Notes: generated by a model from the sequence alone, not told the origin. A stretch of 64,000 bases of DNA from an uncultured virus (IMG/VR IMGVR_UViG_3300035698_020436) (IMGVR_UViG_3300035698_020436), one strand, 5' to 3'. Shown: positions 26,596 through 62,899, counted from the first letter of the stretch. Program-made: numbers and translations.

Positions 26596-27111
26596 ATGAA
26601 AAACAAAGAAGTTGAGACCCTTGTCAAGTTGTTAACCGAAAAAGGTTGGCATATCGTAACAATGGAGTCCTGTACAGGCGGTGCATTGGCCAATGCTATT
26701 ACTAATGTTCCAGGTGCAAGTGCTGTCATCAAGGACTCTTTCATTACTTATTCTAATGAAGCCAAGATCAAATTGGGTGTTCCAGCAGAATTGATTGATA
26801 AATATACGGTCTATAGCCTTCCAGTTGCTGAAGCTATGGCTAAACAAGCTATAGCAAATTCAGTAACCGACCATCAGAAAATCGTAGGTGTTGGGATCAC
26901 TGGTTCTCTCACCCGAGAAGACCCGAACAACCCTAACTCAGAACCAGGTAAGGTTTATATTGCTATTTGTGTTTCGGGGAGTGCCAAAGGGAATGTTAAT
27001 TTTTCCTATGGGATTATTGTCAATGGAGACGACAGGGAAAAAGGTAAGGAAGAAGTGCTGGAAGTTTTTCTTAAACTGACTTTGGATAGTGTTTGGATGA
27101 AATTATTATAA
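26596..27111 (+). CDS. pncC: CinA C-terminal family / NMN amidohydrolase
   Basis: ESCTGG, VPGAS, TYSNEAK, VAEAMA, GITG, PGKVYIA motifs. Confidence 0.85.
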   Translation: MKNKEVETLVKLLTEKGWHIVTMESCTGGALANAITNVPGASAVIKDSFITYSNEAKIKLGVPAELIDKYTVYSLPVAEAMAKQAIANSVTDHQKIVGVGITGSLTREDPNNPNSEPGKVYIAICVSGSAKGNVNFSYGIIVNGDDREKGKEEVLEVFLKLTLDSVWMKLL

Positions 27112-28416: not shown

Positions 28417-30369
28417 ATGAACACTACACAAATTGACCAATTAGCACTAAGAGTACGGGCTGCAAAAAATGCATATTACAATGGTAACCCTGTAATGTCC
28501 GATGCAGAATACGACACTCTGGAAGACGAACTCAGAAAAGCTGACTCGAATCACCCCGTCCTGAAAATGGTCGGTATGGCTCCAACAGGCGGTTCTTGGC
28601 CTAAAGCCAAACACGAAATACCAATGGGTTCGTTGAACAAAGCTCAGGTCAAGGCTGAAGTTGAAAAATGGATCAAAGGGGCTGCTACGGCTGGTGAAAT
28701 TGCAGTTATGGATAAACTTGATGGAGCTTCCATTGAGTTAACATACGAAAAACGTCATCTGGTTCGTGGTGCTACTCGTGGTGATGGTGATATCGGTCAG
28801 AACATAACCCGAAACATTCTGCTTATGCAGGGTGCTGTCAAGGTTTTGCCTTCTACCATTAACGGTCAACCAACCCCTGACAAAGTATATGTCCGTGGTG
28901 AAGTTATCGTATCCAAATCCCTGTTTGCCAAATTCTTCAAAGGGGAGTCAAACCCTCGTAACACTGCAAACGGAACAATGACCCGTCAAACCAACCATGA
29001 CAAATGTAAACATCTGTCCATCATTGCTTATCAGTATATGCCTGAAGGTTATGGTATGGACACCAAAAAGGCCGAACTGACTACCTTGAAGGACATCGGT
29101 TTTATCACTCCCAGATGGTCAATCGTAAGCTCTCTGGCCGAAATCGAAGCTGTCTATCAGGATTACATTAACAGTATCCGTGACGGCCTTGATTACTTGA
29201 TTGATGGTCTGGTTCTTGAAGTGAACAACAGAGACAAGAGAAATGACCTTGGTGACCTGAATGGTCGTCCTAAAGGTGCTATTGCTTACAAGTTCCCTCA
29301 TGAGTCCAAGCCGACCCACCTGAAAGCTATCCGCTGGCAGGTTGGTAACTCTGGCCGAATCACACCGGTTGCTGAGTTTGATACCGTAAATCTGGCAGGA
29401 GCTAACATTTCTCAGGCTTCGTTGCATAACCTCAGTAACATTGCTGAAATGGTGAACGAAGTCAGACCTGGATGGAAAGAACTCTGTATTGATGATTCAA
29501 TTTTGGTGAGTCGTAGAAATGACGTAATTCCCTACGTGGAGTCATTACTCTCCAGTGGTGATACGGCAGTACGTTTTAATATCCCGAAAAAATGCCCCGT
29601 ATGTGGTGAAAAACTCAGCATGAATGGTGAGTACCTTGTCTGTACGAATTCAGATGAATGTGAAGCTCAGATTATCGGAATGCTGAAACGCTGGGTAACC
29701 AAACTGGATATCAAACATATGGGTGAAGCTCTCTTGACAATGCTGATTGAAGACGGCCACATTGAAGACATTGCTGACCTCTACAGAGTTGACCCTATCA
29801 AGGTTTCAGTTATGACAATGAATGGCCGTATGGTTGGTGGAAGTGCCGACCGTGGCTTCCAGAACCTTCGTGCTAAAAAATCTATCCCTGTCGACCTCTT
29901 GGTAGGTTCCCTTGGAATCCCAATGATCGGTCGTAGTATGGCAAGAAAAATTAGTGATGCCGGATATGATACTCTCTCTAAAATGTATAAGGCTCAGATC
30001 GTTGATATTGCTCAAATCCCAGGTGTTGGCCAGACCAAAGCAGAATATTTCGTTCGTGGGTTTAGCAAAAGAATCGGTTTGATTGCCAAATTGATCCAAC
30101 ACCCCGACGATGGTGGTGCTGGTATCACCATTAAGGTCACTAAGGGGCCACTGAAGGGCAAAACTTTCTGTATGACAGGCTTCCGTGACAGTGCCTTGGT
30201 GGATGCCATTGAAGGCTCAGGTGGGACGGTGAAATCTGGTGTCAGCAAAACTCTGGATTATTTGGTTGTTCAAGACGTAACCTCAACCAGTGGCAAAGCC
30301 AAGAAAGCTGCCAAGTACGGAACTGCTATCATCAGTATTGATGAAGCCAAAAAAATGGCTGGTATCTAA
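28417..30369 (+). CDS. ligA: NAD+-dependent DNA ligase
   Basis: YY...SDAEYD, KLDG, TRGDG, RGEV, NPRN, DGLV, zinc finger, HhH repeats, C-terminal BRCT. Confidence 0.97.
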   Translation: MNTTQIDQLALRVRAAKNAYYNGNPVMSDAEYDTLEDELRKADSNHPVLKMVGMAPTGGSWPKAKHEIPMGSLNKAQVKAEVEKWIKGAATAGEIAVMDKLDGASIELTYEKRHLVRGATRGDGDIGQNITRNILLMQGAVKVLPSTINGQPTPDKVYVRGEVIVSKSLFAKFFKGESNPRNTANGTMTRQTNHDKCKHLSIIAYQYMPEGYGMDTKKAELTTLKDIGFITPRWSIVSSLAEIEAVYQDYINSIRDGLDYLIDGLVLEVNNRDKRNDLGDLNGRPKGAIAYKFPHESKPTHLKAIRWQVGNSGRITPVAEFDTVNLAGANISQASLHNLSNIAEMVNEVRPGWKELCIDDSILVSRRNDVIPYVESLLSSGDTAVRFNIPKKCPVCGEKLSMNGEYLVCTNSDECEAQIIGMLKRWVTKLDIKHMGEALLTMLIEDGHIEDIADLYRVDPIKVSVMTMNGRMVGGSADRGFQNLRAKKSIPVDLLVGSLGIPMIGRSMARKISDAGYDTLSKMYKAQIVDIAQIPGVGQTKAEYFVRGFSKRIGLIAKLIQHPDDGGAGITIKVTKGPLKGKTFCMTGFRDSALVDAIEGSGGTVKSGVSKTLDYLVVQDVTSTSGKAKKAAKYGTAIISIDEAKKMAGI

Positions 30370-33556: not shown

Positions 33557-33640
33557 TGTGAGTTTTGACACCTGTTACACTCGTTTGGAGAAAAAATATG
33601 TGAGTTTTGACACCTGTTACACTCGTTTGGAGAAAAAATA
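33557..33640. repeat. perfect 42-bp tandem duplication at the 3' end of ORF 33360-33641
   Basis: TGTGAGTTTTGACACCTGTTACACTCGTTTGGAGAAAAAATA x2. Confidence 0.95.
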
Positions 33641-33906
33641 AGTGATGAATTTATATACTGTCAATATCCGTATTCCAAATAAAATACAGAGTATTAAAGA
33701 TGATGGTTCTATTGATGATTTGAAATGTTATCATTATTTAGTATTAGCATTAAAAAAAGATATCTACAGGTTAGTTTCAAGTATGCCTGAAATTAAGAAT
33801 TTTAAAATTAAACCAGACCAACTTGAAATATCATTGTTCGATGTACCTGCTGTTTTTACGGATGTAGGGGGAAATCAGGTTTGGTTTGATATAGAAAACA
33901 ATACTG

Positions 33907-34320
33907 ATGAATAATATGCCGGATGAGAGAACAGACTTGATATGCCCCGATTGCAAAGCCTTGATGGTTCTTAGAGAAGGAAAATTCGGTTTGTTCTATG
34001 GATGCTCAACATATCCTGAATGTACTTGTGCTCATGGTGCCCACAAAGAAGGTGGTGCTCCGCTTGGTATTCCGGCTAACCGTGAGACTAAGGACTGGAG
34101 AATTAAAGCTCATGATGCCTTTGATGGACTCTGGAAAGTGAAAAAAGCAATGACCCGGAAAGAGGCTTACCTGTGGATGTCCGAAGTTATGGAATTATCA
34201 CACAAGGATGCTCATATCGGTATGTTCGACATTGTTCAATGTGAGAAACTGATTGGTTTGGTATTTGATTTTATTAAAAAACTCCTGGATGAAGATCCGG
34301 GGATTGAATTAGAGGTGTAA
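33907..34320 (+). CDS. topoisomerase-type C4 zinc ribbon plus DUF3268-like protein
   Basis: CPDC...G.FGLFYGCS.YP.C; PLG.PA...R..AH.AFD.LW...AY.W...AHIG.F. Confidence 0.75.
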   Translation: MNNMPDERTDLICPDCKALMVLREGKFGLFYGCSTYPECTCAHGAHKEGGAPLGIPANRETKDWRIKAHDAFDGLWKVKKAMTRKEAYLWMSEVMELSHKDAHIGMFDIVQCEKLIGLVFDFIKKLLDEDPGIELEV

Positions 34321-34832
34321 TGATGACGAACTCTTGGAAAGAAGATATGTACAAAGGTTATCGGGTAGTGTGGTCACAAGGGCCATCTCTATCAATCCCT
34401 TCATGGTGTCTTTACACATTGGAGCAAACCCCCGGAGACAGTATGTGTGCTGATTGGTCTTTCTATAAAGGTGGTTTTGAAAAACTGAGGGATGCTCATA
34501 AATGGATAGATGAACAGGTAAAAAAGAAAACAGCAGAGTTTTCAAGACATATGCCTTGTGAACGGACTGATTTGATTTGTAAACAATACCCTATGAAACT
34601 CCAGACTGGAAAACACGGGCTATTCTACGGCTGTACTAACCACCCGAAATGCAATGGCTCTCACGGTGCCTGTGAAGATGGGTCACCGAAAGGAATCCCA
34701 GCCAAAGCCGAGACGAGACAGTGGAGACAGAAAGCAATTGCTGCTGTGGACATTCTGGCCAACCATCTGCCGAAAGCCAACATCAAAGATTGCCAAGCTA
34801 TTATTGAGCTGGCCAAGAAATTTCGATTTTAA
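34320..34832 (+). CDS. paralog with a degenerate zinc ribbon C-terminal half
   Basis: ERTDLIC...GLFYGC...C..HGA...G.P.GIPA..ET..WR.KA. Confidence 0.7.
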   Translation: MMTNSWKEDMYKGYRVVWSQGPSLSIPSWCLYTLEQTPGDSMCADWSFYKGGFEKLRDAHKWIDEQVKKKTAEFSRHMPCERTDLICKQYPMKLQTGKHGLFYGCTNHPKCNGSHGACEDGSPKGIPAKAETRQWRQKAIAAVDILANHLPKANIKDCQAIIELAKKFRF

Positions 34833-36466: not shown

Positions 36467-37201
36467 ACAAACCACCTAGCAGAAAATGTAGGATGCAGTG
36501 TCCATTATCAGATAGGTGTCTTAGATATGATGCAAATATGAGTATCCATGACCCAACTATTTCTATTGGATATCAGGCAGATGAACAATACTGCCCGGAA
36601 CAGTTGCTTAAACCTGAGAAATCCGACGAGGACTTTCAGGCACAAGAACTGAAGCGGATACGGGATACATACAAGAATGACCCTACTATTCAGAATTTAG
36701 TTATAAGTGGCCGTCCCACAGACTTGATGGCTGTTGATGAGATTCTGGCGTTACGTGGCCATATTGATAAGATGATCGAGCTCGTTGAAACTACTTTAGA
36801 GCTTAATACTGCAGAACTTTTGAACTGGCTTAAAAAAGCCAAGAAAATTAGGAGGTAATAATGAGTTATTATGTATTGGATAGCAACCTGAAACTGAAGT
36901 TTGTGAGAAATCTGTCTGTCGGATGGTTACAGCATTTGGTTAGGTTTGGATTTACTGTACAGCATTTGTCAGACAGTACCATAAATATCCTAAAAAACCC
37001 CTGTGATCACAACGAGATTGGTGGATGCTCCAGTCACATAAATGCTTTGGAAGCAGTCCAAGAATATATAGTACCAGGTTCAAAAATTACCGTAGTTTAC
37101 CCAGAAAATGACTGGACTGTCGTTCGTACCATTTTTGAGAAAAAGGGTAAAAAAGAAATTATCGGCCATATGAAACCTGTATGGAAAACTAAGGAGACAG
37201 C

Positions 37202-37783
37202 ATGAAACTGAAAGACCGCCTGTTGGCATTCGTTGACGTTGAAACGACTGGGTTAGACCCAGAAAAACACGAGATGATCGAGTTTGCCTGTAAAACTTCT
37301 GACGGCAAGAAAATCCAGTTCAAGATCAAGCCTCAACACATCGAAACAGCTCACCCAAGAGCCTTGGAAGTGAACGGATACACCCCAGAACGATGGAAAG
37401 ATGCCATAGAGCCTAAACAGGCTGCTGCCATTATCCAAGAGTGGTTGGAAGAGGTTATCATCATCGGTCAAAGCATTAAATTTGATGTGGGTTTTATCAA
37501 AGCCTTGTTGAAACGGGAAGGTGTTGAATATGATAACAATTTCCTGAGATATTCTGGAGACACTGTTACCTTGGCACTGGCACATTTAGTCCCCAAAGGA
37601 CTCACGAACCTATCACTGAAATCTATCATGCAATTCCTTAATATGGAACCTGAGCCTGATGTCCATGAGGCTATGAATGGAGTGGACTGCTGCAAAGCTG
37701 TATGGGAAAAGTTAACAGATACAGGCTTCGATGCTTCCAAGTTCCACAAACATTACTCCGGCCCGGAGTACGATAAAGAGTAA
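37202..37783 (+). CDS. DEDDh 3'-5' exonuclease (DnaQ-like)
   Basis: DVETTGLD, FD, H.A...D motifs. Confidence 0.85.
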   Translation: MKLKDRLLAFVDVETTGLDPEKHEMIEFACKTSDGKKIQFKIKPQHIETAHPRALEVNGYTPERWKDAIEPKQAAAIIQEWLEEVIIIGQSIKFDVGFIKALLKREGVEYDNNFLRYSGDTVTLALAHLVPKGLTNLSLKSIMQFLNMEPEPDVHEAMNGVDCCKAVWEKLTDTGFDASKFHKHYSGPEYDKE

Positions 37784-37793
37784 ACAGCTCTTT

Positions 37794-37831
37794 GGCTTAG
37801 TTTTCGTTTCCCGTGGGTTGTTGATGTAAGA
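37794..37831 (+). promoter_or_regulatory. 38-bp element copy 19 heading the cas operon
   Basis: GGCTTAGTTT-TCGTTTCC-CGTGGGTTGTTG-ATGTAAGA. Confidence 0.75.
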
Positions 37832-37887
37832 ATGATGGTCTTAACTATACGGAGACAAATATTACTCTTAGAGTAATATAAAAAATA

Positions 37888-40695
37888 ATGGATAAATATC
37901 TTCAACTCACTCAAAACATTGCAGTTTTGTCTGGTCTGTTTCATGACTGGATTAAAGCCTCGGAGTTTTTTATAACAAAACTCCGAAAAAACGAAATTGT
38001 CCAAGACCCTCTAAGACATGATTGGCTATCTGCCGTGTTTTTTTCTTCTATAGTTGGGAAACAATCCGACCTTGAATGGCTTCAACAACTTATTGATGGG
38101 AATATCCCATCAGAATTTAAAATACCTGACAACCCATTAGAAAATCTCCCAGACACAGCTGCCGTTATATTTTGGTTAATTTTAACGCATCACAGATTAC
38201 CGATAATTGATCGATATAGAGGAAAAAACTGTGGGGATTTTCGGAATCTTTTTAAGTTTATTTCGGCTGAGTGGGGATACCAACATCTTAAAACCCAAGG
38301 CTTAGAGAAATGTTTTAAATTCCCTAAAGGATTACCAGACCATTCCCCTATTTTAGTACAACACATCCAGAAAGCAGCTCAGGATTTATATAATTCTATA
38401 GGTACGCTGGAGGAAGTAATCCAAAAAAGAAATCTTCGTACAATCCTGACTCAAGCTCGTATGGCTCTCATGTTAGCGGATCATTTCCATTCGTCCCAAG
38501 ATGCTGACCCAAACTGGCCGAAGACATATCCTGTTTTTGCTAATACGTACCGAGACACTGGTAAATTAAAGCAACGGCTTGATGAACACCTTGTCGGAGT
38601 AGCTAATCAGGCAGCCTTCAATGTGAAATTTCTGCATGAGCTTGTGGACATTAATCACAAACACCAAGCCTACCCGTCACTCGTTATTAAAAGCCCCGCT
38701 GAATTTCAATGGCAAGAAGATGCTGTCACAGTTATCCGAAACCAGTATCAAAAAGGAGGCTTTTTTGGGGTCAGTATTGCCAGTACAGGAACAGGTAAAA
38801 CATTAGGTAATGCTAAAATTATGCAAGCTCTATCGAAAGACGGGAAAGGACTTCATTATACATCAGCCCTTGGACTCCGAACCTTAACCCTACAAACTGG
38901 ATTGGAATACCGTGACCGGATTGGATTAACGGATAAAGATATGGCCGTTCTGATTGGTTCTACTGACAACCTGAATCCATTCTATGCAGGTTCAGAATCT
39001 GAAGACTGTTTATTAGATAATGAATTGATTGGGGGCTTGGCAGAAGCAGGGTTATCCCCAGTATTACGAGATGAAAAGAGCTGTCGGTTTTTCCACACTC
39101 CTGTGGTGGTTTGTACTATTGACCATCTAGTTGGGGCTACGGAAACTAGAAAGGGTGGCCGGTATATCCTACCTCTCCTTCGATTGATGTCTTCTGACCT
39201 AGTTATTGATGAAATAGATAATTTCTCAAATGGAGACTCCGTTGTTATTGGCCATTTAATCCATCTTGCTGGGATGTTAGGAAGAAAAGTCCTCATTTCC
39301 TCAGCCACAATTCCTCCTGATATGGCAGAAGGGTATTTTAATGCTTATCAGGCCGGTTGGGAAGAATTTTGTAAAAACCAATCTGAAAACCCTGCTGTTA
39401 GTTGTTTCTGGACAGATGAGTTTGGAGCAACACTTGAATCTGTGGAGACCCTGACTGAGTATCGGAAATACCATCAAGAATTTGTTGAACAGCGTGTCAT
39501 AGAATTAGCTAAGAAACCAATCAGACACCGAGTTAATATAGGGGAAATCCAACCTGTTAAAAATGAAAGCCGTAAAAAAACAAAAAACAGATTTTTTAAA
39601 TCCATGACAGATTGTTGTTTCGAATTACACAAGGACAATTACACTAAAGATGCCAAAACAGGTAAATTAGTGAGTATTGGTGTTATCAGAGTCAATACTA
39701 TAAATACTTGTGTATCACTTACAAAACATCTCTTGAAAACCAAACTTCCACCTAATATCGATATCCGAACAATGGCCTACCACAGCCAACAAGTTATGGC
39801 CTTGCGTAATGTTCAGGAGACTCATTTAGATAACGTGTTGAAAAGACACAAAGGTTCTCAAGCAATTTTTGATAACCCCATCATTAGAGAGCATGTAGAT
39901 AATAGCTCGGCTGATCATGTGATATTTATTCTTGTAGCTACTTCAATCGAAGAAGTTGGTAGAGATCATGATTTTGATTGGGGTGTAATCGAACCATCCT
40001 CATTTCGGGCAATTATTCAGCTAATAGGACGTATATTACGACATAGGATGAAAAATGTTACACAACCTAATGTAACGATTATGCAGTATAACTTAAAAGG
40101 CTTGCTTGGAGACCGACTCCCTTTCAAACTCCCAGGCTATGAATCTACTCAGCATGTTTTCAATTCTCATGATATTACTAACCTCATTGATAAGGAGACT
40201 ATCTGTGAAGGTTTGAATGCTACACCAAGAATTACCAAGAACACCCCCTTAGACCCCCAAAACAAGCTGGTAGACCTCGAACACACAATCACTCATGAAA
40301 CCCTATCTGATTACACCCAACAAGGGCCAGAGAGTCTTGCAGGCTGGGTTAAGACGTTTTGGTGGATGACTGCCACACCTCAAAAAATGAATAAGTTTCG
40401 GTCAGATTATCCCTGCCTTCGAGTCTTCTTGATCCCCACGGATGATGGTCCTGTTTTTTTTGAAAAAACAAAAAGACATGGGATTCGAAAAATCGAATCC
40501 TTGTATGGAGTTAGGGTAAACAAGTCTGATGATGAAATGCCTTTGAAAAGATTATGGCTTCATAGAGATTTTGAAACTATTATTGATGGTTTGGACCTTA
40601 TGATACACGGAGAAATCAACCTACCAACGTATGGTAAGGATAAAAATGAAATTCGTTATGAGTATTCTGACCAGTTTGGGTTAATTGCAAAATAG
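37888..40695 (+). CDS. cas3: type I-F Cas3 HD nuclease-helicase lacking the N-terminal Cas2 domain
   Basis: FHDWIKA at about residue 18, DPLRHDW, THHRLP, LADH, ASTGTGKT, DEID, SSAT, EVGRDHDFD, QLIGRILRHR. Confidence 0.93.
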   Translation: MDKYLQLTQNIAVLSGLFHDWIKASEFFITKLRKNEIVQDPLRHDWLSAVFFSSIVGKQSDLEWLQQLIDGNIPSEFKIPDNPLENLPDTAAVIFWLILTHHRLPIIDRYRGKNCGDFRNLFKFISAEWGYQHLKTQGLEKCFKFPKGLPDHSPILVQHIQKAAQDLYNSIGTLEEVIQKRNLRTILTQARMALMLADHFHSSQDADPNWPKTYPVFANTYRDTGKLKQRLDEHLVGVANQAAFNVKFLHELVDINHKHQAYPSLVIKSPAEFQWQEDAVTVIRNQYQKGGFFGVSIASTGTGKTLGNAKIMQALSKDGKGLHYTSALGLRTLTLQTGLEYRDRIGLTDKDMAVLIGSTDNLNPFYAGSESEDCLLDNELIGGLAEAGLSPVLRDEKSCRFFHTPVVVCTIDHLVGATETRKGGRYILPLLRLMSSDLVIDEIDNFSNGDSVVIGHLIHLAGMLGRKVLISSATIPPDMAEGYFNAYQAGWEEFCKNQSENPAVSCFWTDEFGATLESVETLTEYRKYHQEFVEQRVIELAKKPIRHRVNIGEIQPVKNESRKKTKNRFFKSMTDCCFELHKDNYTKDAKTGKLVSIGVIRVNTINTCVSLTKHLLKTKLPPNIDIRTMAYHSQQVMALRNVQETHLDNVLKRHKGSQAIFDNPIIREHVDNSSADHVIFILVATSIEEVGRDHDFDWGVIEPSSFRAIIQLIGRILRHRMKNVTQPNVTIMQYNLKGLLGDRLPFKLPGYESTQHVFNSHDITNLIDKETICEGLNATPRITKNTPLDPQNKLVDLEHTITHETLSDYTQQGPESLAGWVKTFWWMTATPQKMNKFRSDYPCLRVFLIPTDDGPVFFEKTKRHGIRKIESLYGVRVNKSDDEMPLKRLWLHRDFETIIDGLDLMIHGEINLPTYGKDKNEIRYEYSDQFGLIAK

Positions 40696-40708
40696 AAAGG
40701 ATTTGAAA

Positions 40709-41944
40709 ATGGATATTGAAATCCAGAAGTTTTTTGATGAACGTATCAAGAAAAAAATTAAGCATGGAAGTCAAAATATACCTGATGAACAGATGCCTGA
40801 TTTTGAGAACAAAATCAGGGAGAATTTTGTTTTGGAAACGTGGTTGCCAATAGCTGCGGAAAAAGCAAAATTCGTTACTCTCCGAACCCACTCAGGGAAA
40901 ATGACTCACCCTAGTGCCCGGACATCTTCGTTCGTAGCCAAGAAACCCCAAGAAAATGATGGTTATCTTCGAACAGGGAATGTTTCTGTAGAAACAGATA
41001 TGTGTGGAGGTGGGGCAGCCAGCCTAATCTATTATGCCTTCATGAACCTCAAGCTGACTGATGGGCAAACCATTTTAAGCCACCTACAAAAGTCTACTGA
41101 CTATATCAAACAGCAATTCGATATCCCTACAATGTCGTTCGATGACATCCAAAAAGGTTTTCTGGCTGTTTTTGATGAAACAGATGAAGACATTTATACT
41201 GATGGTTTACTCCGAGAAGTATTTTTCCCAGTTGACGATGGTTATCATCTTCTGTCCATTACGAGCCCTTCTGGGATCATTTTTGCCCAAACTGACAAAA
41301 TTGATAAAATCCGTTTCTCAGAAGAAACTAAAGAAATCCGAAAACTTAAACGGCAGGGAAAACCGTCAGATAAAGGTTTTACCGAATTTTTTGACCTGAC
41401 CATTGCCAACTATGGAGGTTCTCAACCTCAGAACATCGGAGCTCTCAACAGCAAGTACAAAAAAGTATACTTGTTATCAGCTTCCCCACCTCAGTTTAAA
41501 AAACGGAAAACCAAGCTACCCAAAACGAACTTTATGTCTATTCTGTGGGTAAAAGGCTTTCAGAGGTCTTTCCAGAAATTTCATACTCAGATAGCTATTA
41601 AAAAACAAAACCAACATAGCCGTCTCCGACGTGATAACCATATTCGGTTCATTGTGGACCAAATCTCTAAACAGATGTGGGCAGTTCGACAGACTGAGCC
41701 TGGATGGTCTAATTCAGATACCTATAGATCATTGCCCAGACATCAAAAAATCTGGTTGGATCAACAGTATGCTGGCAACCGCTATGACAATCCCGATTGG
41801 ATGGGCAAAGTAATTGCTGATATTAGCAGATGGTTCATCAACTCTTATAACACCCTGCTCGGTTCTGATGCAGAGTTGCTTGACGATACTGATTTGAGAC
41901 ATGTGGAAACTATCATTCAAGAATGTGAGGAGGCCATCCGATGA
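40709..41944 (+). CDS. cas8f: type I-F Cas8f (Csy1)
   Basis: TH..K.THP, FFPV...YHLLS, YGGSQPQNIG.LNS, YLL...PP. Confidence 0.92.
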   Translation: MDIEIQKFFDERIKKKIKHGSQNIPDEQMPDFENKIRENFVLETWLPIAAEKAKFVTLRTHSGKMTHPSARTSSFVAKKPQENDGYLRTGNVSVETDMCGGGAASLIYYAFMNLKLTDGQTILSHLQKSTDYIKQQFDIPTMSFDDIQKGFLAVFDETDEDIYTDGLLREVFFPVDDGYHLLSITSPSGIIFAQTDKIDKIRFSEETKEIRKLKRQGKPSDKGFTEFFDLTIANYGGSQPQNIGALNSKYKKVYLLSASPPQFKKRKTKLPKTNFMSILWVKGFQRSFQKFHTQIAIKKQNQHSRLRRDNHIRFIVDQISKQMWAVRQTEPGWSNSDTYRSLPRHQKIWLDQQYAGNRYDNPDWMGKVIADISRWFINSYNTLLGSDAELLDDTDLRHVETIIQECEEAIR

Positions 41945-42834
41945 AAGACATTTTACTGATACCAAAGATACAAGCTGAAAGTGCCAATGCTCATTCCAGT
42001 CCATACTCCGGCGGATTTCCTGCTATGACGGCTTGGATGGGTTTTGCTCATTTGCTTGAAAGAAAACTTCAACAGACTTCTTATGCAGGGATCAAGTTTA
42101 AAAGTGTTGGGGTGGTGAGTCATGATTTTACTTTGAGAAATTTTAAGCACCCCAAGGATTTCTGTTCCGCTATTATTGGCAGACGTTTACCCCCTCAAAA
42201 CCCTAGTCAAAAAGGGGCACCTCTGATTCCCGACTTAACCTGTGACCTAACGGTTTCTATAGTGTTGGAATGTTCAGGGATGGGGATGATAGATCATGAA
42301 GATTTCACCAACACTATTAGGAAAATCATTTATAGTCTTAAATTGGCTAGTGGTGATATTGTAAACCTCCAAAAACCAGAAGTTCTCACCGTCCATGATG
42401 AGAAAAGCCAAAAAACCCTGCTCCGTCGGCTTATGCCAGGTAACTGTCTGATTGAACGTCGGGATCTGATACAGAAAGCTATGGAAAACGGCCAAGATGC
42501 CCTTGAAGCTGTTCTTTCTCATACTTGTATAGAACACTCATATAATGAGGTAACAGATAAGTGGGAAAGTAAACGGAAAACATCAGGTTGGCTGGTTCCA
42601 ATTACTACAGGTTATCAAGGACTCACTAAATTGGGTCCTGCTGAAAACACACGAGATGCAAACGATACCCCACACCGATTTGCTGAAGCTATTGTAACAT
42701 TATGTGAATTTATCATGCCATATAAAATTGTCGAACTTGATAACATGCTATGGCACTATCATTCTGATATGAACAAAGACCTTTATCTTTGTCAACAGAA
42801 TAAACCTACATACTCAGGAGAAAACTATGTCTAA
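41941..42834 (+). CDS. cas5f: type I-F Cas5f (Csy2)
   Basis: ANA.SSP...GFPAMTAW.GF.H.LER, GWLVPI..GY, HRFAE. Confidence 0.93.
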   Translation: MKDILLIPKIQAESANAHSSPYSGGFPAMTAWMGFAHLLERKLQQTSYAGIKFKSVGVVSHDFTLRNFKHPKDFCSAIIGRRLPPQNPSQKGAPLIPDLTCDLTVSIVLECSGMGMIDHEDFTNTIRKIIYSLKLASGDIVNLQKPEVLTVHDEKSQKTLLRRLMPGNCLIERRDLIQKAMENGQDALEAVLSHTCIEHSYNEVTDKWESKRKTSGWLVPITTGYQGLTKLGPAENTRDANDTPHRFAEAIVTLCEFIMPYKIVELDNMLWHYHSDMNKDLYLCQQNKPTYSGENYV

Positions 42835-43858
42835 AGTCAAAATCCCCGGGAATTTGTCATTCCGCAAGCGTTTAGAACCCTCAAAAGGAATCCTTTTTGG
42901 AACTTCCTGGGACAAACGCCGAGAAATTTGTGTCCCTTTAACCAATGAACTTATCACTGTCAGAGGTGGTAAAACTCACCACCAAAATTTCCCTGACAAT
43001 CGTGAGAAAGGTGAGTCTGAGTTGGGTGATGCCAACATCCACACTCTTGATTCCTGTTTGTTGTCCAAGGATCACGATACCGTGCGTTTAACTTACACCT
43101 TGAAAGTTCTCAACGGTGTTGCCGGTATGGAAAGCTGTAATGACAAAGAATTCCTTAACCTGTTCGAGGAATGCTTAAAAGAAAAACTGGATACTGTTGG
43201 AGTGAAAGTTCTGGCCCATCGTTATGCCACCAACATTGCCAATGGTCGTCCTTTGTGGAAAAACCGTGAAGCTACCCATATTGAAACGGTCGTTCGTTGC
43301 CGTGGCAGTGAGACAGAGTGGGTTTTTGACGGTAAAGAAATCCCATTGCATACTTTCGATTATGAAAGTTCTGCATTGACAGGGCTAACTCAAGTCATTG
43401 AAGATGCTTTGTTAGGTAACACTGACCTTATCATTCTGGAAGTGTCCTCATACGCTTTGGTCGGTCAAGGTCAGCCGGTATTCCCCAGTCAAGAATTCAT
43501 TCAGGATCAAGGGAATGGTTTCAGCTCGAAGAAAGACGGGAAGAAAAGCAAAGTTTTATACTTCCCCGAAGATGTAGCCGGCCTGCACCCGCAAAAAATC
43601 GGTAATGCCATCCGTACTATTGATTCATGGTATGGAGACGGTGTCTCTCCGATTGCTGTGGAACCTTACGGTGCCCAGCCTACTTTCAATACCCATCACC
43701 GTAGCCCTTACGAACAAAAGGACTTTTATTCCATGTTGGTGAAATTTGTGAACAAGGAAGAATTGACCGAATCCGAAGTTCATTACTTCATGGCCATGCT
43801 GGTCAAAGGTGGTGTGTTTGGTGCAGCCAAATCCAAGCCTAAACCCAAATCCAAGTAG
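42827..43858 (+). CDS. cas7f: type I-F Cas7f (Csy3)
   Basis: LSF...L.PS, RYA.NIANGR.LW.NR, VFPSQEF, H.QKIGNAIRTID.WY, AVEPYG, GGVFG. Confidence 0.95.
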   Translation: MSKVKIPGNLSFRKRLEPSKGILFGTSWDKRREICVPLTNELITVRGGKTHHQNFPDNREKGESELGDANIHTLDSCLLSKDHDTVRLTYTLKVLNGVAGMESCNDKEFLNLFEECLKEKLDTVGVKVLAHRYATNIANGRPLWKNREATHIETVVRCRGSETEWVFDGKEIPLHTFDYESSALTGLTQVIEDALLGNTDLIILEVSSYALVGQGQPVFPSQEFIQDQGNGFSSKKDGKKSKVLYFPEDVAGLHPQKIGNAIRTIDSWYGDGVSPIAVEPYGAQPTFNTHHRSPYEQKDFYSMLVKFVNKEELTESEVHYFMAMLVKGGVFGAAKSKPKPKSK

Positions 43859-43870
43859 GAGAAAAAGAAC

Positions 43871-44440
43871 ATGAAATACTACCAAGAAATTACGTTGATC
43901 CCTGACCCTGTTGGGATGCCCCTGAGTTATTTACAGCAACGTCTGTTCTATCAGGTTCATGCAGCCTTGGCTCGTGAACCTGGGGATAATTCCGTGGGTA
44001 TATCTTTCCCTGATTACGATGGGGAAGGATGCCAACTGGGAAATAAAATAAGGTTGTTAGCTCCGACTGAGGATATTTTAAAAAACCTTCAACTTCGACA
44101 CCTACTTCTCAGGTTAAGTGATTATTCTCATTTGTCAGATATCCGACAGGTGCCTGAGAAAATTGAAAGCTATGCTTTTTTTCGTCGGGTTCAACCGAAA
44201 ACCAGCCTTGGCAGCATAGCTCGTCGAAAAGCTAGACGTGAAGGGATTACAGTTGATGAAGCCTTGAATCTTTTAGGACCACCTAAAAAAACACCCAAAC
44301 TCCCCGCTGTTTCAATGGAGAGTAAAAGTTCAGGTCAACAATATCCTTTGTTTGTTTCCCGAGTTTTATCTGATGAGCCAGCTACGGGGTCATACAGTAC
44401 GTATGGATTGAGTTCCACAGGTACTGTACCTTTATTTTAA
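43871..44440 (+). CDS. cas6f: type I-F Cas6f (Csy4) crRNA endoribonuclease
   Basis: YYQEITL, VH.AL, GISFP.Y, Arg-rich helix, S.SSGQ, YGLS...TVP.F. Confidence 0.93.
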   Translation: MKYYQEITLIPDPVGMPLSYLQQRLFYQVHAALAREPGDNSVGISFPDYDGEGCQLGNKIRLLAPTEDILKNLQLRHLLLRLSDYSHLSDIRQVPEKIESYAFFRRVQPKTSLGSIARRKARREGITVDEALNLLGPPKKTPKLPAVSMESKSSGQQYPLFVSRVLSDEPATGSYSTYGLSSTGTVPLF

Positions 44441-44558
44441 TCAAAACAAAAAACCTAAGTGGTTATGGCTACTTAGGTTTTTTGCTTTTAACATTGGTAA
44501 AAACATGTAATCATGTATAGGTCTTTGAAAACTCAATAGTTTTATGATTTATGCTCCT
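44441..44558 (+). promoter_or_regulatory. CRISPR leader
   Basis: AT-rich region between cas6f and the most conserved end of the array. Confidence 0.7.
44447..44484 (+). terminator. hairpin after cas6f (probable terminator)
   Basis: CAAAAAACCTAAGT...ACTTAGGTTTTTTG inverted repeat. Confidence 0.6.
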
Positions 44559-46490
44559 GTGAACTGCCGAGTAGGCAGCTTAGAATAACAGTTTGTACCG
44601 GTATTGTTTGGCAGATGTGTGAACTGCCGAGTAGGCAGCTTAGAATCTGCTCTGGAAATTTTGAGTATCCATACTGCCGTGAACTGCCGAGTAGGCAGCT
44701 TAGAATTGTTTGATTTTCTGACTCATTCCACCGAACGGGTGAACTGCCGAGTAGGCAGCTTAGAATTGTTTTGTCGAACCGACATTGATTTTTGAAAAGT
44801 GAACTGCCGAGTAGGCAGCTTAGAATTGGAGGTCAGAAAGGAAACGGTAACTATGTCTAGTTAACTGCCGAGTAGGCAGCTTAGAATTCAGACAATAATT
44901 CAAGAAAGTATCAATTAAAGTGAACTGCCGAGTAGGCAGCTTAGAATTGGAAAACCATAGAATCAGAGAAGCTGGATTCGTGAACTGCCGAGTAGGCAGC
45001 TTAGAATACATGTGTCGTAACCGTGTTCACGAAAAATTCGTGAACTGCCGAATAGGCAGCTTAGAATGGGTAACGATGACGTTGGAAAATGTAGACAGAG
45101 GTACACTGCCGAACAGGCAGCTTAGAATGACAGGTCGCATCGTGAATTTCTGGATCTGAAGTTAACTGCCGAGTAGGCAGCTTAGAATATTGATATTGAT
45201 GCTAATAACGGCAGTGATGAGTGAACTGCTGAATAAGCAGCTTAGAATACAAGTCACAATATTGGATTAGCAAGCACATAGTTAACTGCCGAATAGGTAG
45301 TTTAGAATTTGCTTTTTTGTGACTGTACCTAGAACCTGTGGTTAACTGCCGAGTAGGCAGCTTAGAATCGAAGAACACGTCGGATCTCCCTGAAAATATC
45401 GTGAACTGCCGAACAGGCAGCTTAGAATAGTTCATCACACAAGGCCATTAGCTCGTCCACCGTTAACTGCTGAACAGGTAGTTTAGAATACAGGGAATCT
45501 GCGGACTTTGCCAACCTTGATGTAAACTGCCGAATAGGCAGCTTAGAATTGGTCAACCGAACTACACAAAATGTCTTTTGCATGAACTGCCGAGTAGGTA
45601 GTTTAGAATTGTCCTGAAATGCCTGTTGTCACAAATGAGATGTTAACTGCCGAATAGGCAGTTTAGAATTATGTGGGATCAAAGCTCTCCCAAGGGTGGG
45701 TGTTAACTGCCGAGCAGGCAGCTTAGAATCATGTATAAGTTGCTCTCAATCCACAATTTAGGTGAACTGCTGGATAAGTAGTTTAGAATAATTTAATCAG
45801 GTCATTCATAACGGCCATTTTAGTTAACTGCCGAATAGGCAGCTTAGAATTCTTGTTGGATGCAAGTGTCTTATCAACATTTGTTAACTGCCGAATAGGC
45901 AGCTTAGAATTGAGACAGATCCCAAAGCTGAAATCGAATCCAGTGAACTGCCGAACAGGCAGCTTAGAATAAGGAACAGAAGCAGCTAGTTCAATTGGTA
46001 CTGTTAACTGCCGAACAGACAGCTTAGAATGAAATTCCTTCATCCACATATTCGGCAACTATGTGAACTGCCGAACAGGTAGTTTAGAATTTTATGGAAC
46101 TCACTACGACCGCCAGACCGGATCGTGAGCTGCCGAATAGGTAGTTTAGAATCTATTGACACCAAAGCAGATTGAATCCGCGGGAACTGCCGAATAGGCA
46201 GCTTAGAATGATGAAACTCTATGACGAGGAACGAGTGGAGGGTGAACTGCTGAATAAGCAGCTTAGAATACAATCGAATCAATGCCGTCTAAAAGCTCCG
46301 CAGGAACTGCTGGATAAGCAGCTTAGAGTTCGTATGGAGTAACCGTGAAAAACTGCCGGACAGGTAGTTTAGAATTTAGAAATAAGGGTGTGGCATTGAA
46401 GCCGAGTGAAAACTGCCGAATAGGCAGCTTAGAATAAGCACATCAGCTATGTTAAACCGCACTGCGTGAACTGCTGAATAAGTAGCTTAG
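44559..46490 (+). CRISPR. type I-F CRISPR array, 33 repeats and 32 spacers
   Basis: 28-bp repeat GTGAACTGCCGAGTAGGCAGCTTAGAAT with CTGCC/GGCAG stem; mostly 32-33-nt spacers; degenerate distal end. Confidence 0.97.
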
Positions 46491-46526
46491 CTTAGTTTCC
46501 AAAAGTTGTGGGTTGTTGGGGTAGAA
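46489..46526 (+). promoter_or_regulatory. 38-bp element copy 20, overlapping the last CRISPR repeat
   Basis: AGCTTAGTTT-CCAAAAGT-TGTGGGTTGTTG-GGGTAGAA. Confidence 0.75.
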
Positions 46527-46561
46527 GTAATTAACAATCTTAACCTATTTGGAGATAGAAC

Positions 46562-48109
46562 ATGGCCAAAACAATCATTGATAGTGTTACTTTAAATTTT
46601 ACTGACCTTACCGGTGCCAAGACAGGCTGTACCAAACTCGGTTCCAACAAATTCTGGAAGGGCTGGGTTGAAGACCTTGGAGACGGCACAGGCAATTTCG
46701 AGTGTTGCTGGGGTGCTACAGGCACACCAGGTAAAGACACCGGAAGCAAACGAGGTATTGACCTTGATGATGCCCAAACCTTGCTCAATAAGAAAGTTAA
46801 ATCAAAAGTAAAAAAAGGTTATACCCTCCTTGAAGTTCGTTCCGATGAGGAAGAGGTGGCCAAGGCTGCTGACAACGGTGTAAACCTCACTGCTGACAAG
46901 AAAGCCCCCAAAAAGAAAAAAGCTGTCAAGAAATCAACTTTCAATCCTGCTATCGGAAACTTGCTGGCTACCATCTATAATGAAACCAGCCGTGTTGTCA
47001 CAGCAGGTCTTTCCTCTCAGGCTGGCTCATCTGCTGATAACCCTATAGGTAACCTGTCTGATGCCCAGTTAGACGTAGGTGGTGGCATTTTGGACGATAT
47101 AGAGGCATTCCTGACACAGGAACTTGGCCATGAAGACACAGCTAACCGTGTTCAAACCTTGGCTTTGTCTGCTGATGGTGTACCTTCTGATGGTGTCATT
47201 GATTTGACTAATCAGTACATGTCGAATGTTCCGAGAGAAATTGACCGTTCACAAAGAGGTAGAGGCAACCTGCATCGTCTGGTTATTTCATCCTTTGAAC
47301 GCTTGGAAGAGCAACGAAAGTTTTTACAGTTGCTTCGTGATGCTCACCTGACCAAAGGTGTCTTTAAAGCTGCTGCTAATGCTTCTACAGGTGGTAAAGA
47401 ACAGATTTGGTATGAAGGCCTCAATTGCCTTATCGAATTGTGTGAGTCTGGATCAGCCGAATTCAAGAAAGTGTCAGACATATTCAACAACAACCAATCT
47501 CGTAAAAACCAGAACTGGTTCAGTGGTGGACGTTCTACTCTCCGCTTGAAACGGATTTTCAAGTTCACTCGTAATGGTACAGACAAACAGTTTGCCAAGT
47601 ATGCTAAAGAGATGGCTTCCAAGCCCAATGCAGTCGGCAATATTTTTGCTTGGCACGGCACACGTACTGAGAACCTTCTCGGTATCAGTAAAACTGGCCT
47701 CTTGATGCCTGAAAACTTGCCTCGTGGTATCCACGTATCAGGTAAAGCTTTCGGCAAAGGGATTTATCACGCCCCTGATATTTCAAAAATAAGAACCATT
47801 CACGGTGTGCAAACAGATGGTACGAATGGAGCTTTGAAGTCTATGAACTATACCTCTTCAAGGGGAGCTTATTACGGTTCAAATAACACTTCAAATTCGG
47901 CCTTCATGTACCTGCAGGAAGTTGCTTTAGGTAACGGTGATGTTCATACAGCCCCTTGCTGGGACAAACACCGTCCGAATAACTACCCGAAGAACGATTT
48001 CATTTATGCAGCAGCCGGCGGTTGTAGCACGTTATCCCATGATGAATTGGTAACTTTTTCTCAGGATGCTCAAATATTCCGCTATTTGCTTGAGATTGAA
48101 GCAAGATAA
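46562..48109 (+). CDS. PARP-like ADP-ribosyltransferase (WGR-like, helical regulatory and catalytic domains)
   Basis: NKFW...WGATG...K.K.KKGY; PIGNLS..QL...LTNQY...VP; WHGT, GKAFGKGIY, S.NY, EVALG, DELV. Confidence 0.85.
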   Translation: MAKTIIDSVTLNFTDLTGAKTGCTKLGSNKFWKGWVEDLGDGTGNFECCWGATGTPGKDTGSKRGIDLDDAQTLLNKKVKSKVKKGYTLLEVRSDEEEVAKAADNGVNLTADKKAPKKKKAVKKSTFNPAIGNLLATIYNETSRVVTAGLSSQAGSSADNPIGNLSDAQLDVGGGILDDIEAFLTQELGHEDTANRVQTLALSADGVPSDGVIDLTNQYMSNVPREIDRSQRGRGNLHRLVISSFERLEEQRKFLQLLRDAHLTKGVFKAAANASTGGKEQIWYEGLNCLIELCESGSAEFKKVSDIFNNNQSRKNQNWFSGGRSTLRLKRIFKFTRNGTDKQFAKYAKEMASKPNAVGNIFAWHGTRTENLLGISKTGLLMPENLPRGIHVSGKAFGKGIYHAPDISKIRTIHGVQTDGTNGALKSMNYTSSRGAYYGSNNTSNSAFMYLQEVALGNGDVHTAPCWDKHRPNNYPKNDFIYAAAGGCSTLSHDELVTFSQDAQIFRYLLEIEAR

Positions 48110-48140: not shown

Positions 48141-48170
48141 TCCCTGCCTTTACGGGCGGGGGTTTTTTTT
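48141..48170 (+). terminator. intrinsic terminator
   Basis: CCCTGCCT-TTAC-GGGCGGGG followed by a T8 run, directly before element copy 21. Confidence 0.8.
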
Positions 48171-48208
48171 GGCTTAGTTTCTAATTTTTGTGGGTTGTTG
48201 TAGTAAGA
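48171..48208 (+). promoter_or_regulatory. 38-bp element copy 21
   Basis: perfect consensus. Confidence 0.75.
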
Positions 48209-48563
48209 AGGCAATGATGCCTGATAAGTTGGTTGAAGCAAGATAAACAGGAGGATACTGTAATGACTAATTCAAAAAATGCTCAGAAGTTTGCCTCGTT
48301 TACCTATGCCGAGCAAAAAGAACTTTCAAATGCTCTTAGACACCACTTGAGTGAGTGTCAGGTACGAGAAGAATCTCAACGGGATGATGATCCGATCAAA
48401 CTCTTTGCGGAAAGTCTTCAAAATGTCTGTAAAGATAAATTTGTAGATTTAAGCCCTGCTGCTGCTCTGGAAAAAACTACCCACGAGACAGCAAAAGAGC
48501 GGATTACTCGTGTAGCATTGATGAGCAATGCTTTGTCCTATGCTTTAAAAGAGGGTATCAATA

Positions 48564-54920: not shown

Positions 54921-55076
54921 ATGAGTTTTGAAAAATTCATGTTAACGGAAAATTTTGAAGTTAATACCTGTTGGGACTGTGAGTCCCGGATAGGTGAGGA
55001 ATGTAGTTATGATGGTCATGAGGTTTTTCCTGACAGTGAAATCTGTGACCAATTTTCAAAAACGGAGGTCACCTAA
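54921..55076 (+). CDS. small Cys-rich protein (51 aa, below the track cutoff)
   Basis: GGAG RBS, ATGA overlap with the upstream ORF, CWDC...C...C. Confidence 0.55.
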   Translation: MSFEKFMLTENFEVNTCWDCESRIGEECSYDGHEVFPDSEICDQFSKTEVT

Positions 55077-55077
55077 A

Positions 55078-56247
55078 ATGGCACGAGAAGCAACAATACA
55101 AAGAATTGAAACGATTAGCCCTATCAAGAAAGCTGATTTTTTAGAACTAGCTACATTTGAAGGGTTAGGCTGGACATGTGTAGTTAAAAAAGGGGACTTT
55201 AAACCCGGTGACCCCTGTGTTTACTTCATGATCGATAGTGAACTGCCCCCAGAAGCACCGTGGGCAGTTTTCTTGGCCGAAAAAGGTAGCACACGTATCA
55301 AAACGATGCGTCTCCGTGGAGCTTTGTCTCAAGGACTGGCTTTGAAGACCAGTATCCTGATGGAATCCCTTCATCCTGATAATGATGAAATCATTACAGG
55401 TATTCAGAGTGATAGTATGGGTATTGAATTCACTACTGAATCTGGTTGGCAAGACCCGGTTCGGTGGGGGTATGACGTGACCCATATGCTGGGTGTCAAA
55501 CACTACGAGAAGCCGATCCCTGAAGGGATAAGCGGAGATCCAAAGGGAGCATTCCCCGGGTACATTCCGAAAACTGACGAAACGACACTCCAGAACATTC
55601 CGGCTATCCTACAAGAGATGGAAGGACAGGAAATATATGTCACAGTTAAATGTGATGGTACTTCCACGACGTTTGCCCAACTCGACGGTGATATAGATAT
55701 CTGTGGCCGTAACTGGTCTATGAAGGAGTGGTCTCGTGAGGATGATCCTGATGGTAAGCCACCCATTCACAACCTGTACTGGATTATGGCTCGAAAATAC
55801 GGAATCTTGGATATTCTCAAGGAACATGACGGGATTGCTATCCAAGCTGAAATGGTAGGCCCCGGAATTCAAGGTAACCGCCTCGGCCTCGACGAAACAG
55901 AAATTCGTGTATTCGATATCTGGGATATTAAGAAAGCTCAGTACTATGACTTTGAAGACCTCTGGAGTTTCTGCCAGAGATACAAACTCCCGATGGTTCC
56001 GATAGTTTACCTGACGGGTAGTGATTCTCAGAACCACCTGTGTTCTGAGACTGTAACAATGGAAGGACCTATGTTGACTCAGGAATACTGGTTGAGGATA
56101 GCTGAAATTCGTCATTACCTCGGCACGGAGAATCGTATCGAAGGACTCGTCACCCGTACCTGCAAAGCTCAGTACTTGGACGGTGTTCAGAACAGGGCTT
56201 CTTTCAAGGCTTTGAATAACATGTTTCTGTTGAAAGACGAGGAGTAG
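55078..56247 (+). CDS. RNA ligase, DRB0094/Rnl5-like family
   Basis: N-terminal OB-type ATIQRI..I.PI..AD.LE...GW..VVKKG.F..GD..VY..IDS; IPKTDE; KCDGTS; EGLV; SFK. Confidence 0.9.
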   Translation: MAREATIQRIETISPIKKADFLELATFEGLGWTCVVKKGDFKPGDPCVYFMIDSELPPEAPWAVFLAEKGSTRIKTMRLRGALSQGLALKTSILMESLHPDNDEIITGIQSDSMGIEFTTESGWQDPVRWGYDVTHMLGVKHYEKPIPEGISGDPKGAFPGYIPKTDETTLQNIPAILQEMEGQEIYVTVKCDGTSTTFAQLDGDIDICGRNWSMKEWSREDDPDGKPPIHNLYWIMARKYGILDILKEHDGIAIQAEMVGPGIQGNRLGLDETEIRVFDIWDIKKAQYYDFEDLWSFCQRYKLPMVPIVYLTGSDSQNHLCSETVTMEGPMLTQEYWLRIAEIRHYLGTENRIEGLVTRTCKAQYLDGVQNRASFKALNNMFLLKDEE

Positions 56248-57839: not shown

Positions 57840-58349
57840 ATGATTTGGTTTACTGCCGATCCGCATTTTGGCCATAGAAATATTATTAAATATTGCAAAC
57901 GACCCTTTAAGGGTCCGAAAGAAATGGATACTGTTATTAGGACAAACTGGAATGCTTTGGTTAAACCCAAGGATACCGTTTACGTCCTTGGTGACTTTTC
58001 CATGTCCACTAATAAGAAAAACCTTGAAGATTGGTTTAATGCCCTACACGGTAAGAAAACTCTTATCGTAGGTAACCACGACTCCAAGGCTTGTCTCAAG
58101 CTCCCGTGGAAAGATGTGTTTGAAGTCAAACAGATACGCCATTCTGGCCATAGAATCTGGTTGAGTCATTATGCCCATAGAACATGGCCGAATGCCTACC
58201 ACGGTGCAATGCATCTGTTCGGCCATTCACACGGAATGCTGCCACCCTACCGACGCTCAATGGATGTCGGAGTTGATGTCTGTGACTTCAAACCGATATC
58301 TGGAGACAAGGTAGTAGAGATATTAATGAAAAAAGAAACAACTTCGTAA
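57840..58349 (+). CDS. calcineurin-like metallophosphoesterase
   Basis: D.HFGH, LGDF, GNHD, SHY, GHSHG, DVGVD. Confidence 0.92.
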   Translation: MIWFTADPHFGHRNIIKYCKRPFKGPKEMDTVIRTNWNALVKPKDTVYVLGDFSMSTNKKNLEDWFNALHGKKTLIVGNHDSKACLKLPWKDVFEVKQIRHSGHRIWLSHYAHRTWPNAYHGAMHLFGHSHGMLPPYRRSMDVGVDVCDFKPISGDKVVEILMKKETTS

Positions 58350-61594: not shown

Positions 61595-61598
61595 CTGA

Positions 61599-62896: not shown

Positions 62897-62899
62897 AAT

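Follow-up and report, generated by a model that had tools for sequence, protein, structure and literature searches.

How does a CRISPR array come to hold 32 spacers when the cas operon beside it carries no adaptation genes? The question is raised by positions 37794 to 46490 of a 64,000-nucleotide (nt) stretch of DNA from an uncultured virus (IMG/VR IMGVR_UViG_3300035698_020436), which at its full length we refer to as the window. We consider it likely that this locus is an interference-only CRISPR-Cas module derived from type I-F1 whose carrier, a phage-like genome of very large size (at least 402 kb), comes from salt-lake metagenomes. What is new here is an unusually clean form of the I-F1 system, in which Cas3 has been kept and its fused Cas2 domain cut off.

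The operon consists of five co-oriented genes on the + strand (37888–44440), all of which match Pfam families over nearly the full profile. The first, cas3f (37888..40695; 935 amino acids (aa)), encodes an HD nuclease, a RecA1/RecA2 helicase, a linker and a C-terminal domain, and is followed by the signature I-F1 effector set. This set comprises csy1/cas8f (40685..41944; 419 aa from a TTG whose assignment as start codon is uncertain; PF09611 positions 2–377 of 378), csy2/cas5f (41941..42834; 297 aa; PF09614 positions 1–296 of 296, with TIGR02565 above its cut-off), csy3/cas7f (42827..43858; 343 aa; PF09615 positions 2–328 of 328, with TIGR02566 at 283 bits against a cut-off of 157.6) and the endoribonuclease gene csy4/cas6f (43871..44440; 189 aa), whose product aligns end to end with Pseudomonas aeruginosa Csy4 and conserves a histidine at the position of its His29. 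The NCBIfam equivalog cut-off was reached by four of the five products, the exception being Csy1 (156.9 against 169.4), which scored 292 bits on PF09611. Downstream on the same strand lies the CRISPR array (44559..46493), in which 33 repeats, each 28 nt long, enclose 32 spacers; 24 of the spacers are 32 nt long and the rest 18–34 nt. The repeats share the orientation of the cas genes, which places the leader (44441..44558, + strand, 118 bp) next to csy4 and makes the repeat beginning at 44559 repeat 1.

The most distinctive feature of the operon is where Cas3 begins. The protein scored 631.6 bits against TIGR02562 (cut-off 565.95), covering only profile positions 115–1019 of 1110 with positions 1–114 absent, and its residues 11–830 aligned to residues 115–961 of the P. 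aeruginosa Cas2/3, for which a structure has been solved (E = 7e-146); both comparisons identify it as a Cas3f of the Yersinia subtype. A preprint on the I-F integration complex assigns residues 90–110 of the P. aeruginosa protein to a disordered linker between Cas2 and Cas3 and residues 111–374 to the HD domain (10.1101/2023.05.26.542337), so that the protein encoded here starts within the Cas2–Cas3 linker. In a MAFFT alignment with full-length relatives (~1,095 aa), too, its first residues fall at the Cas2/HD boundary, and conservation extends through to the C-terminus. Its HD motif occupies residues 19–20, and the motifs of the metal site (HD, RHDW, THHRLP, LMLADH) are kept, as are those of the helicase (ASTGTGKT, DEID, SAT, QLIGRILRHR). 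According to the 2020 CRISPR classification, Cas2 is said to be fused to the N-terminus of Cas3 in type I-F1; this I-F1 feature is absent here, and a tblastn search with the first 125 residues of eight relatives found no Cas2-like sequence in the window besides the HD start. As a second assembly carries the same 935-aa protein start (934 of 935 residues identical), the short beginning is not an accident of assembly.

Among the 120 Cas3 relatives listed, seven were missing the Pfam Cas2-domain family. Two environmental Cas3f proteins without this family, P0059 (993 aa, on a 5,580-bp contig, with the same start boundary as the Cas3 described here) and P0056 (1007 aa), could be further Cas2-less forms or contig-edge artefacts. 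A full-text search of the literature for a Cas2-less Cas3f, thin in scope, returned only a preprint on phage ICP1, which tentatively suggests that such a form has not been described.

Genes for adaptation were sought across the window. The Pfam scan covered 79 of the 105 open reading frames (ORFs) of at least 100 aa, the remainder being overlapping shadow frames, and none of the 79 belonged to a Cas1 or Cas2 family; when two Cas1 proteins were compared with the 64-kb window by tblastn, the best match, inside csy4, had an E of 0.14. Upstream of the operon, an exonuclease gene ends at 37783, and the 104 bp between it and the cas3 ATG are occupied by a regulatory motif, leaving no cas1 or cas2 remnant there. 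Within the window, the locus has the make-up of the adaptation-less systems of huge phages, with effector and array and with no Cas1, Cas2 or Cas4.

The motif in this gap (37794..37832, + strand) is ~39 bp long: two boxes, the first of 10 nt and the second of 11 nt, are separated by a 9-nt spacer and followed by a TAGTAAGAA-like tail. The window contains 23 copies in all, of which the 13 below 26.5 kb are on the − strand and the 10 above it on the + strand, and every copy lies upstream of an ORF start and is oriented towards it (for example at 635(−), 26486(−), 26540(+), 37814(+), 46509(+) and 54711(+)), with a divergent pair at the strand switch near 26.5 kb. From the end of the copy before cas3 to the ATG is ~56 bp, and the next copy (46489..46527, + strand), which overlaps the degenerate last repeat, sets the downstream limit of the module. 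We infer that the motif acts as a promoter, probably that of one temporal gene class. A single copy of the same layout was found in an IMG/VR virus contig (L098; CheckV 14% complete). Loose contig ends at 37794, 46487–46526 and 48167–48214, considered as possible rearrangements, were rejected as such when they proved to be other copies of the promoter-like motif.

No motif copy precedes the array. Directly 3′ of the csy4 stop is a hairpin (44443..44489, + strand) with an A-run before and a U-run after it, folding at −22.3 kcal/mol (z = −6.8; none of 200 shuffles folds as well), which is likely an intrinsic terminator and would end transcription of the cas operon. This strong hairpin and the lack of a motif before the array together suggest that operon and array are transcribed separately, the array from its own leader. 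Up to this point the results agree with the original prediction for this locus, which had counted 32 spacers, described all four Csy genes and the nuclease and helicase motifs as intact (the reading frames are intact and the matches near full-profile), placed the HD motif within the first ~20 residues with the Cas2 domain gone, noted no cas1 in the window, and drawn attention to an element 56 bp before the cas3 ATG. Its proposal that the module is under phage transcriptional control also gains from the position of the operon behind a motif that recurs genome-wide and is predicted to be a promoter.

We then asked which known systems this module resembles. The nearest Cas3 relatives among the matches listed are bacterial I-F1 Cas2-3 proteins at 43–48% identity, from sources named Methylococcales, Crenothrix and Candidatus Venteria as well as of Thiotrichales type, whereas identity to the Cas2/3 of ICP1 and its kin is ~30%. 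The 419-aa Cas8f aligns to residues 17–409 of the 434-aa P. aeruginosa Cas8f, with the C-terminal part present. On both counts the system is unlike that of ICP1, and in this respect the earlier description of it as "phage-type" is not supported. Canonical I-F1 loci (P. aeruginosa PA14, Pectobacterium) share with it the cas3-to-csy4 order of the genes, the downstream placing of the array, the 28-nt CRISPR-DR4 hairpin repeat, 32-nt spacers, an I-F-type leader, a full-length Cas8f and all Cas3 catalytic motifs. The locus differs from them in having no cas1 in the 64-kb window, a Cas3 without the ~105-residue Cas2 domain and linker, no more than 48% identity among the matches listed, repeats that end in T rather than A, and an operon set behind a genome-specific promoter-like motif.

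With ICP1 the locus shares a phage-encoded type I-F system with Cas3, Csy proteins and its own array. According to the ICP1 preprint (10.1101/2024.03.09.584257), the phage keeps cas1 and a Cas2–Cas3 fusion (Cas2 domain, residues 1–78) and has a short Cas8f without the C-terminal helical bundle, so that Cas1 forms the bridge between Cas2/3 and the Csy complex. Here the arrangement is reversed, with a full-length Cas8f, no Cas1 in the window and no Cas2 domain; the short Cas8f and the Cas1-dependent recruitment of Cas2/3 by which the ICP1 type is defined do not fit this locus. Vibrio phage 1.161.O, which has cas1 and a 185-aa Csy1, follows the ICP1-like layout. Since a full-length Cas8f contains the recruiting part, interference without Cas1 is plausible, and Cas3 would probably be recruited without it, unlike in ICP1. 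A further phage comparator at 40% identity, "Acinetobacter phage MD-2021a", was set aside as bacterial DNA, given the chromosomal genes around the locus and an adjoining cas1. That record (L002; CAKLQH020000006.1, 119377–146415), in which thiE, hemL, rapA and rluA surround a complete I-F locus, looks mislabelled.

Among huge phages, the Al-Shayeb 2020 study describes CRISPR systems that almost all lack Cas1, Cas2 and Cas4, with at least five type I systems in Table S1 that have cas3 and no Cas1 or Cas2 (PMC7162821). The present locus is similar in that no Cas1 or Cas2 accompanies an intact effector and array in the window. Its Cas3 is recorded on a contig of more than 200 kb whose gene content in the window is phage-like, with no hallmark virion gene among the recognized ones. 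The only Csy-bearing phage among the entries listed there, A9 (236,936 bp), has Csy1–4 and no Cas1, Cas2 or Cas3 (PMC7162821), whereas here Cas3 has been kept and the Cas2 domain cut off. Loss of adaptation genes from huge-phage CRISPR systems is also reported in a 2024 review, which characterizes type I-F3 by the absence of Cas3 and by tniQ/tns genes adjoining the effector (PMC11656645). Membership in this Tn7-associated group does not fit the locus, in which Cas3 is present and the Pfam scans of the 79 ORFs recognized no transposase or TniQ family.

The module could have originated by a deletion that removed cas1 and the first ~105 codons of cas2-3, with its downstream end falling in the disordered linker, so that a new ATG would have produced a self-standing Cas3 and the operon would have come to lie behind the multi-copy promoter-like motif of the genome. 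Judging by what is known of the family, the cas operon would be transcribed from this motif to the hairpin after csy4, and the array from its own I-F-type leader. Csy4 would then cut the repeats at the base of their hairpins, Csy1–4 would assemble on the CRISPR RNA (crRNA) and bind matching DNA, and the full-length Cas8f would directly recruit the Cas2-less Cas3 to degrade the target, with Cas1 unneeded in contrast to ICP1. Sequence evidence supports a module that is competent for interference. Integration is another matter, as in I-F systems it requires a Cas2 dimer and Cas1 according to the integration-complex preprint cited above (10.1101/2023.05.26.542337). With neither, the module itself cannot integrate spacers, and any further growth of the array needs an integrase from outside, either a host I-F Cas1–Cas2/3 or genes in the rest of the genome.

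We next explored what the array reveals about its own history. Its repeats have the length (28 nt, with ~32-nt spacers) expected of I-F1, fold as a hairpin with a 5-bp stem and a 5-nt loop, and exceed the Rfam CRISPR-DR4 gathering score in 11 of 33 cases. There are 22 distinct variants among the 33. Repeats 1–5, 7 and 8 are identical, and the farther a repeat lies from the leader, the more it tends to differ from repeat 1 (differences by position in the array: 0,0,0,0,0,1,0,0,1,4 ... 7,8,3,6; Spearman rho 0.75, p = 5e-7). Variation is found mainly at repeat positions 1–3, 10, 12–14, 16, 18 and 21; positions 6–9, 11, 15, 19, 20, 22–25 and 28 are invariant, and positions 4, 5, 17, 26 and 27 each vary in one or two repeats only. 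The stem is nonetheless fully paired in 32 of the 33 repeats, pair 10–16 being C-G in 27, T-A in five and T-G in one, and pair 8–18 being G-C in 25 and G-T in eight. Stems retained in this way fit selection on crRNA processing, and the repeat units seem to be of very different ages and under selection for processing. A mosaic of repeat variants produced by recombination between arrays was also considered and dropped, as recurrent transitions at a few tolerated positions explain the pattern equally well.

The divergence gradient is what slow growth at the leader end over a long time would leave, not what decay after one capture event would produce, and it looks as if the array was built slowly over a long time. 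The original prediction had taken the identity of the five leader-proximal repeats as a sign of recent acquisition; the identity itself stands, while recent acquisition is not seen over the time span sampled, the leader-proximal spacers being the same in all assemblies and runs compared. The terminal base of the repeat sets the array apart from its relatives. It is T in all 33 repeats, whereas 2,383 repeats of the same family from 92 bacterial loci end in A (2,382) or G (1) and never in T. The fixed T corresponds to position −1 of the crRNA handle, and a shift of the register by one base does not explain it, for the base preceding the repeats varies and the T therefore belongs to the repeat. 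In the leader, the best match of the window to a profile of 31 non-redundant bacterial I-F leaders is at 44487–44544, where the sequence fits the bacterial consensus. The match is weak (E 0.093, 9.9 bits), and it places profile position 86 of 100 at 44544 and so position 100 where the leader meets the first repeat, in exact register. The first repeat keeps its 5′ GT.

How, then, was the array filled? That it was captured together with its spacers, or stopped acquiring them long ago, and now serves as a fixed guide set or slowly decays, is a reading we hold to be possible rather than probable. Two other metagenome contigs carry the array with 100% identity, contigs from three runs (X2, X9 and X10) span the leader into repeats 1–3 with no extra spacer, and the window contains no integrase; the 22 variants among 33 repeats and the truncated or odd-length distal spacers also fit. 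However, capture in a single event followed by decay predicts equal divergence of all repeats, whereas we see a gradient in which seven of the first eight are identical. The leader motifs have moreover been retained, and the preserved stems indicate units under selection rather than in free decay. A short joint in runs X2 and X9 that goes back from 40837 to 37986 consists of ~20-nt matches and was taken as chance.

We regard it, tentatively, as somewhat unlikely that adaptation proceeds in trans, with a host I-F Cas1–Cas2/3 recognizing the leader and first repeat of the phage and occasionally extending the array. The exact register of the I-F leader motifs would permit this, as would the 5′ GT of the first repeat, which the I-F integrase needs according to the integration-complex preprint (10.1101/2023.05.26.542337), and the divergence gradient suggests that units were added over a long period. 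Yet the leader motifs might be kept for transcription alone, and the leader measures 118 bp including the hairpin, whereas I-F leader motifs may extend 100–200 bp upstream according to the same source (10.1101/2023.05.26.542337). The identity of the array across contigs and the absence of a new spacer behind the leader in the three runs, described above, speak against current growth as well.

The evidence on a donor is similarly divided. In contigs of three of four runs (X2, X9 and X10), repeats of this family (window 45100–45980) enclose three spacers other than those of the phage array, and at least two of these spacers follow a repeat whose last base is not T, probably in bacterial arrays with terminal A. 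This suggests that the salt-lake data sets contain, alongside the phage, bacterial I-F arrays whose repeats are nearly identical to its own. A repeat in a Kangiellaceae metagenome-assembled genome matches at 27 of 28 positions and is the nearest found; no Cas3 match was present in that genome, which is incomplete and hence uninformative on this point. Against a donor of this kind, the exact repeat was absent from 185,579 species genomes and from IMG/VR, so the host array with the same repeat that the original prediction had called for was not recovered in these species genomes. All 33 phage repeats, furthermore, end in the T that the 92 bacterial loci lack. A precedent exists in type IV-A3 systems, which use the adaptation genes of host I-E systems according to work cited in the 2024 review (PMC11656645). 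These are likewise mobile-element CRISPR systems without adaptation genes of their own and offer a functional analogy for acquisition in trans; they are, however, of another CRISPR type, nuclease-less and plasmid-borne, and for them acquisition in trans is established by experiment.

Loss of the Cas2 domain might itself be adaptive, although we think this unlikely. Uncoupled from Cas1, an always-armed Cas3 would be free of restraint by a host I-F Cas1, the array would still be extended, though rarely, by the host integrase acting on a leader preserved to that end, and the terminal T would set phage guides apart from host guides at position −1 of the crRNA handle. Cas1 has reportedly been found to hold the Cas2/3 nuclease in check.

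The nature of the carrier bears on all of these readings. Cas3 is recorded on a 402,136-bp contig, segments of 18,258 and 21,412 bp in two metagenome contigs (114,006 and 116,247 bp, respectively) match the window at 100% identity, and 20 runs labelled salt lake metagenome contain at least part of the stretch, eight of them half or more of the sampled words. Pfam gave no match for 56 of the 79 ORFs; PHROG matches include an NAD ligase, an RNA ligase, a polymerase exonuclease and a phosphoesterase, and an HNH endonuclease and a sugar-modification cluster are also present. No tRNA genes were found in the window. With its 402,136-bp contig, its preponderance of ORFans and its DNA and RNA repair genes of phage type, the context looks like that of a huge phage. 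A megaplasmid or another extrachromosomal or integrated element is, by comparison, improbable. It would be in keeping with the lack of recognized virion genes in the window and with the failure to find the window or close kin in the IMG/VR collection searched, where Cas3 matched one distant locus (L001, 31% identity) and no relatives of the 526-aa upstream neighbour were found. Megablast of window positions 37000–47000 against 50,697 phage records gave no match. Nevertheless, Pfam scans recognized no plasmid replication, partition or conjugation families and no core cellular genes in the window either, the density of ORFans is extreme, the repair-gene set is phage-like, and an IMG/VR virus contig has one copy of the promoter-like motif. 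The language-model neighbours of an 834-aa protein encoded nearby belong mostly to Uroviricota clusters; the same search with a 467-aa ORF gave nothing usable. Finally, stand-alone cas1 and cas2 genes elsewhere in the genome are quite unlikely even though the window covers 64 kb and the contig at least 402 kb, as I-F Cas2 is fused to Cas3 and this fusion has here been cut and not moved, with no Cas2-like sequence nearby, and as huge-phage CRISPR systems usually have no such genes at all (PMC7162821).

We retain the reading of an interference-only I-F1-derived module on a phage-like genome, and several observations weigh against it. The absence of cas1 and cas2 covers 64 kb, and ~338 kb of the longest contig lie outside. 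Capsid, portal, terminase and tail genes, or any others for virion or packaging, were not recognized in the window. The hairpin after csy4 means that the array needs its own promoter, and the sole pointer to one is a weak σ70-like candidate. Distal units of the array are damaged, spacer 30 being 18 nt long and repeats 30, 31 and 33 carrying six to eight changes, and repeat 25 has a broken stem pair. The check for spacer targets and a flanking CC motif proposed in the original prediction, moreover, yielded no protospacer: none of the 32 spacers had a match of at least 18 nt in the masked window, all 32 gave chance-level matches only in the 50,697 phage records at an E limit of 10, and spacers 1–4, the four of 32 compared with IMG/VR (written with N at every sixth base), gave zero matches there.

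Several other features of the window deserve mention. The next gene after the array (46562–48109, + strand), preceded by a motif copy of its own, encodes a 515-aa protein with WGR, poly(ADP-ribose) polymerase (PARP) regulatory and PARP catalytic domains, a eukaryote-like architecture that is unusual in phage. This PARP-like gene has many variant letters in runs X2 and X9, and none are listed for the cas genes. Repair genes are scattered at 12289–13362(−), 26596–27111(+), 28417–30369(+), 54994–56247(+) and 57840–58349(+), and include a "Swiss Army Knife" RNA-repair HAD domain, CinA, an NAD-dependent DNA ligase, an RNA ligase with a PHA02142 OB fold and a phosphoesterase. The sugar cluster (58519–64000, − strand) encodes a DegT-type aminotransferase, an NAD epimerase/dehydratase, two hexapeptide acyltransferases, a methyltransferase, a GT-D-like protein and a UDP-glucose dehydrogenase. 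Two adjacent paralogous ORFs at 33907–34832 (+ strand) each combine a topoisomerase-type zinc ribbon with a DUF3268 zinc-finger domain, and perfect or near-perfect tandem duplications lie between genes at 33557–33645 (42 nt × 2.1) and 23839–23892 (27 nt × 2.0).

Interference-only CRISPR systems in giant phages have been known since 2020. For the question of how their arrays are filled, this locus offers a clean test case, a well-studied I-F1 machine from which only the integrase parts have been removed and which retains a bacterial-looking I-F leader. Its array is a time-ordered record of repeat drift, and structures and assays exist for every homologous part. Set beside ICP1, in which Cas1 is necessary for interference, the module is a mirror image, the two being opposite phage reshapings of one system. 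A natural, self-standing Cas2-less Cas3f could, in addition, serve as a simpler nuclease module for I-F-based tools.

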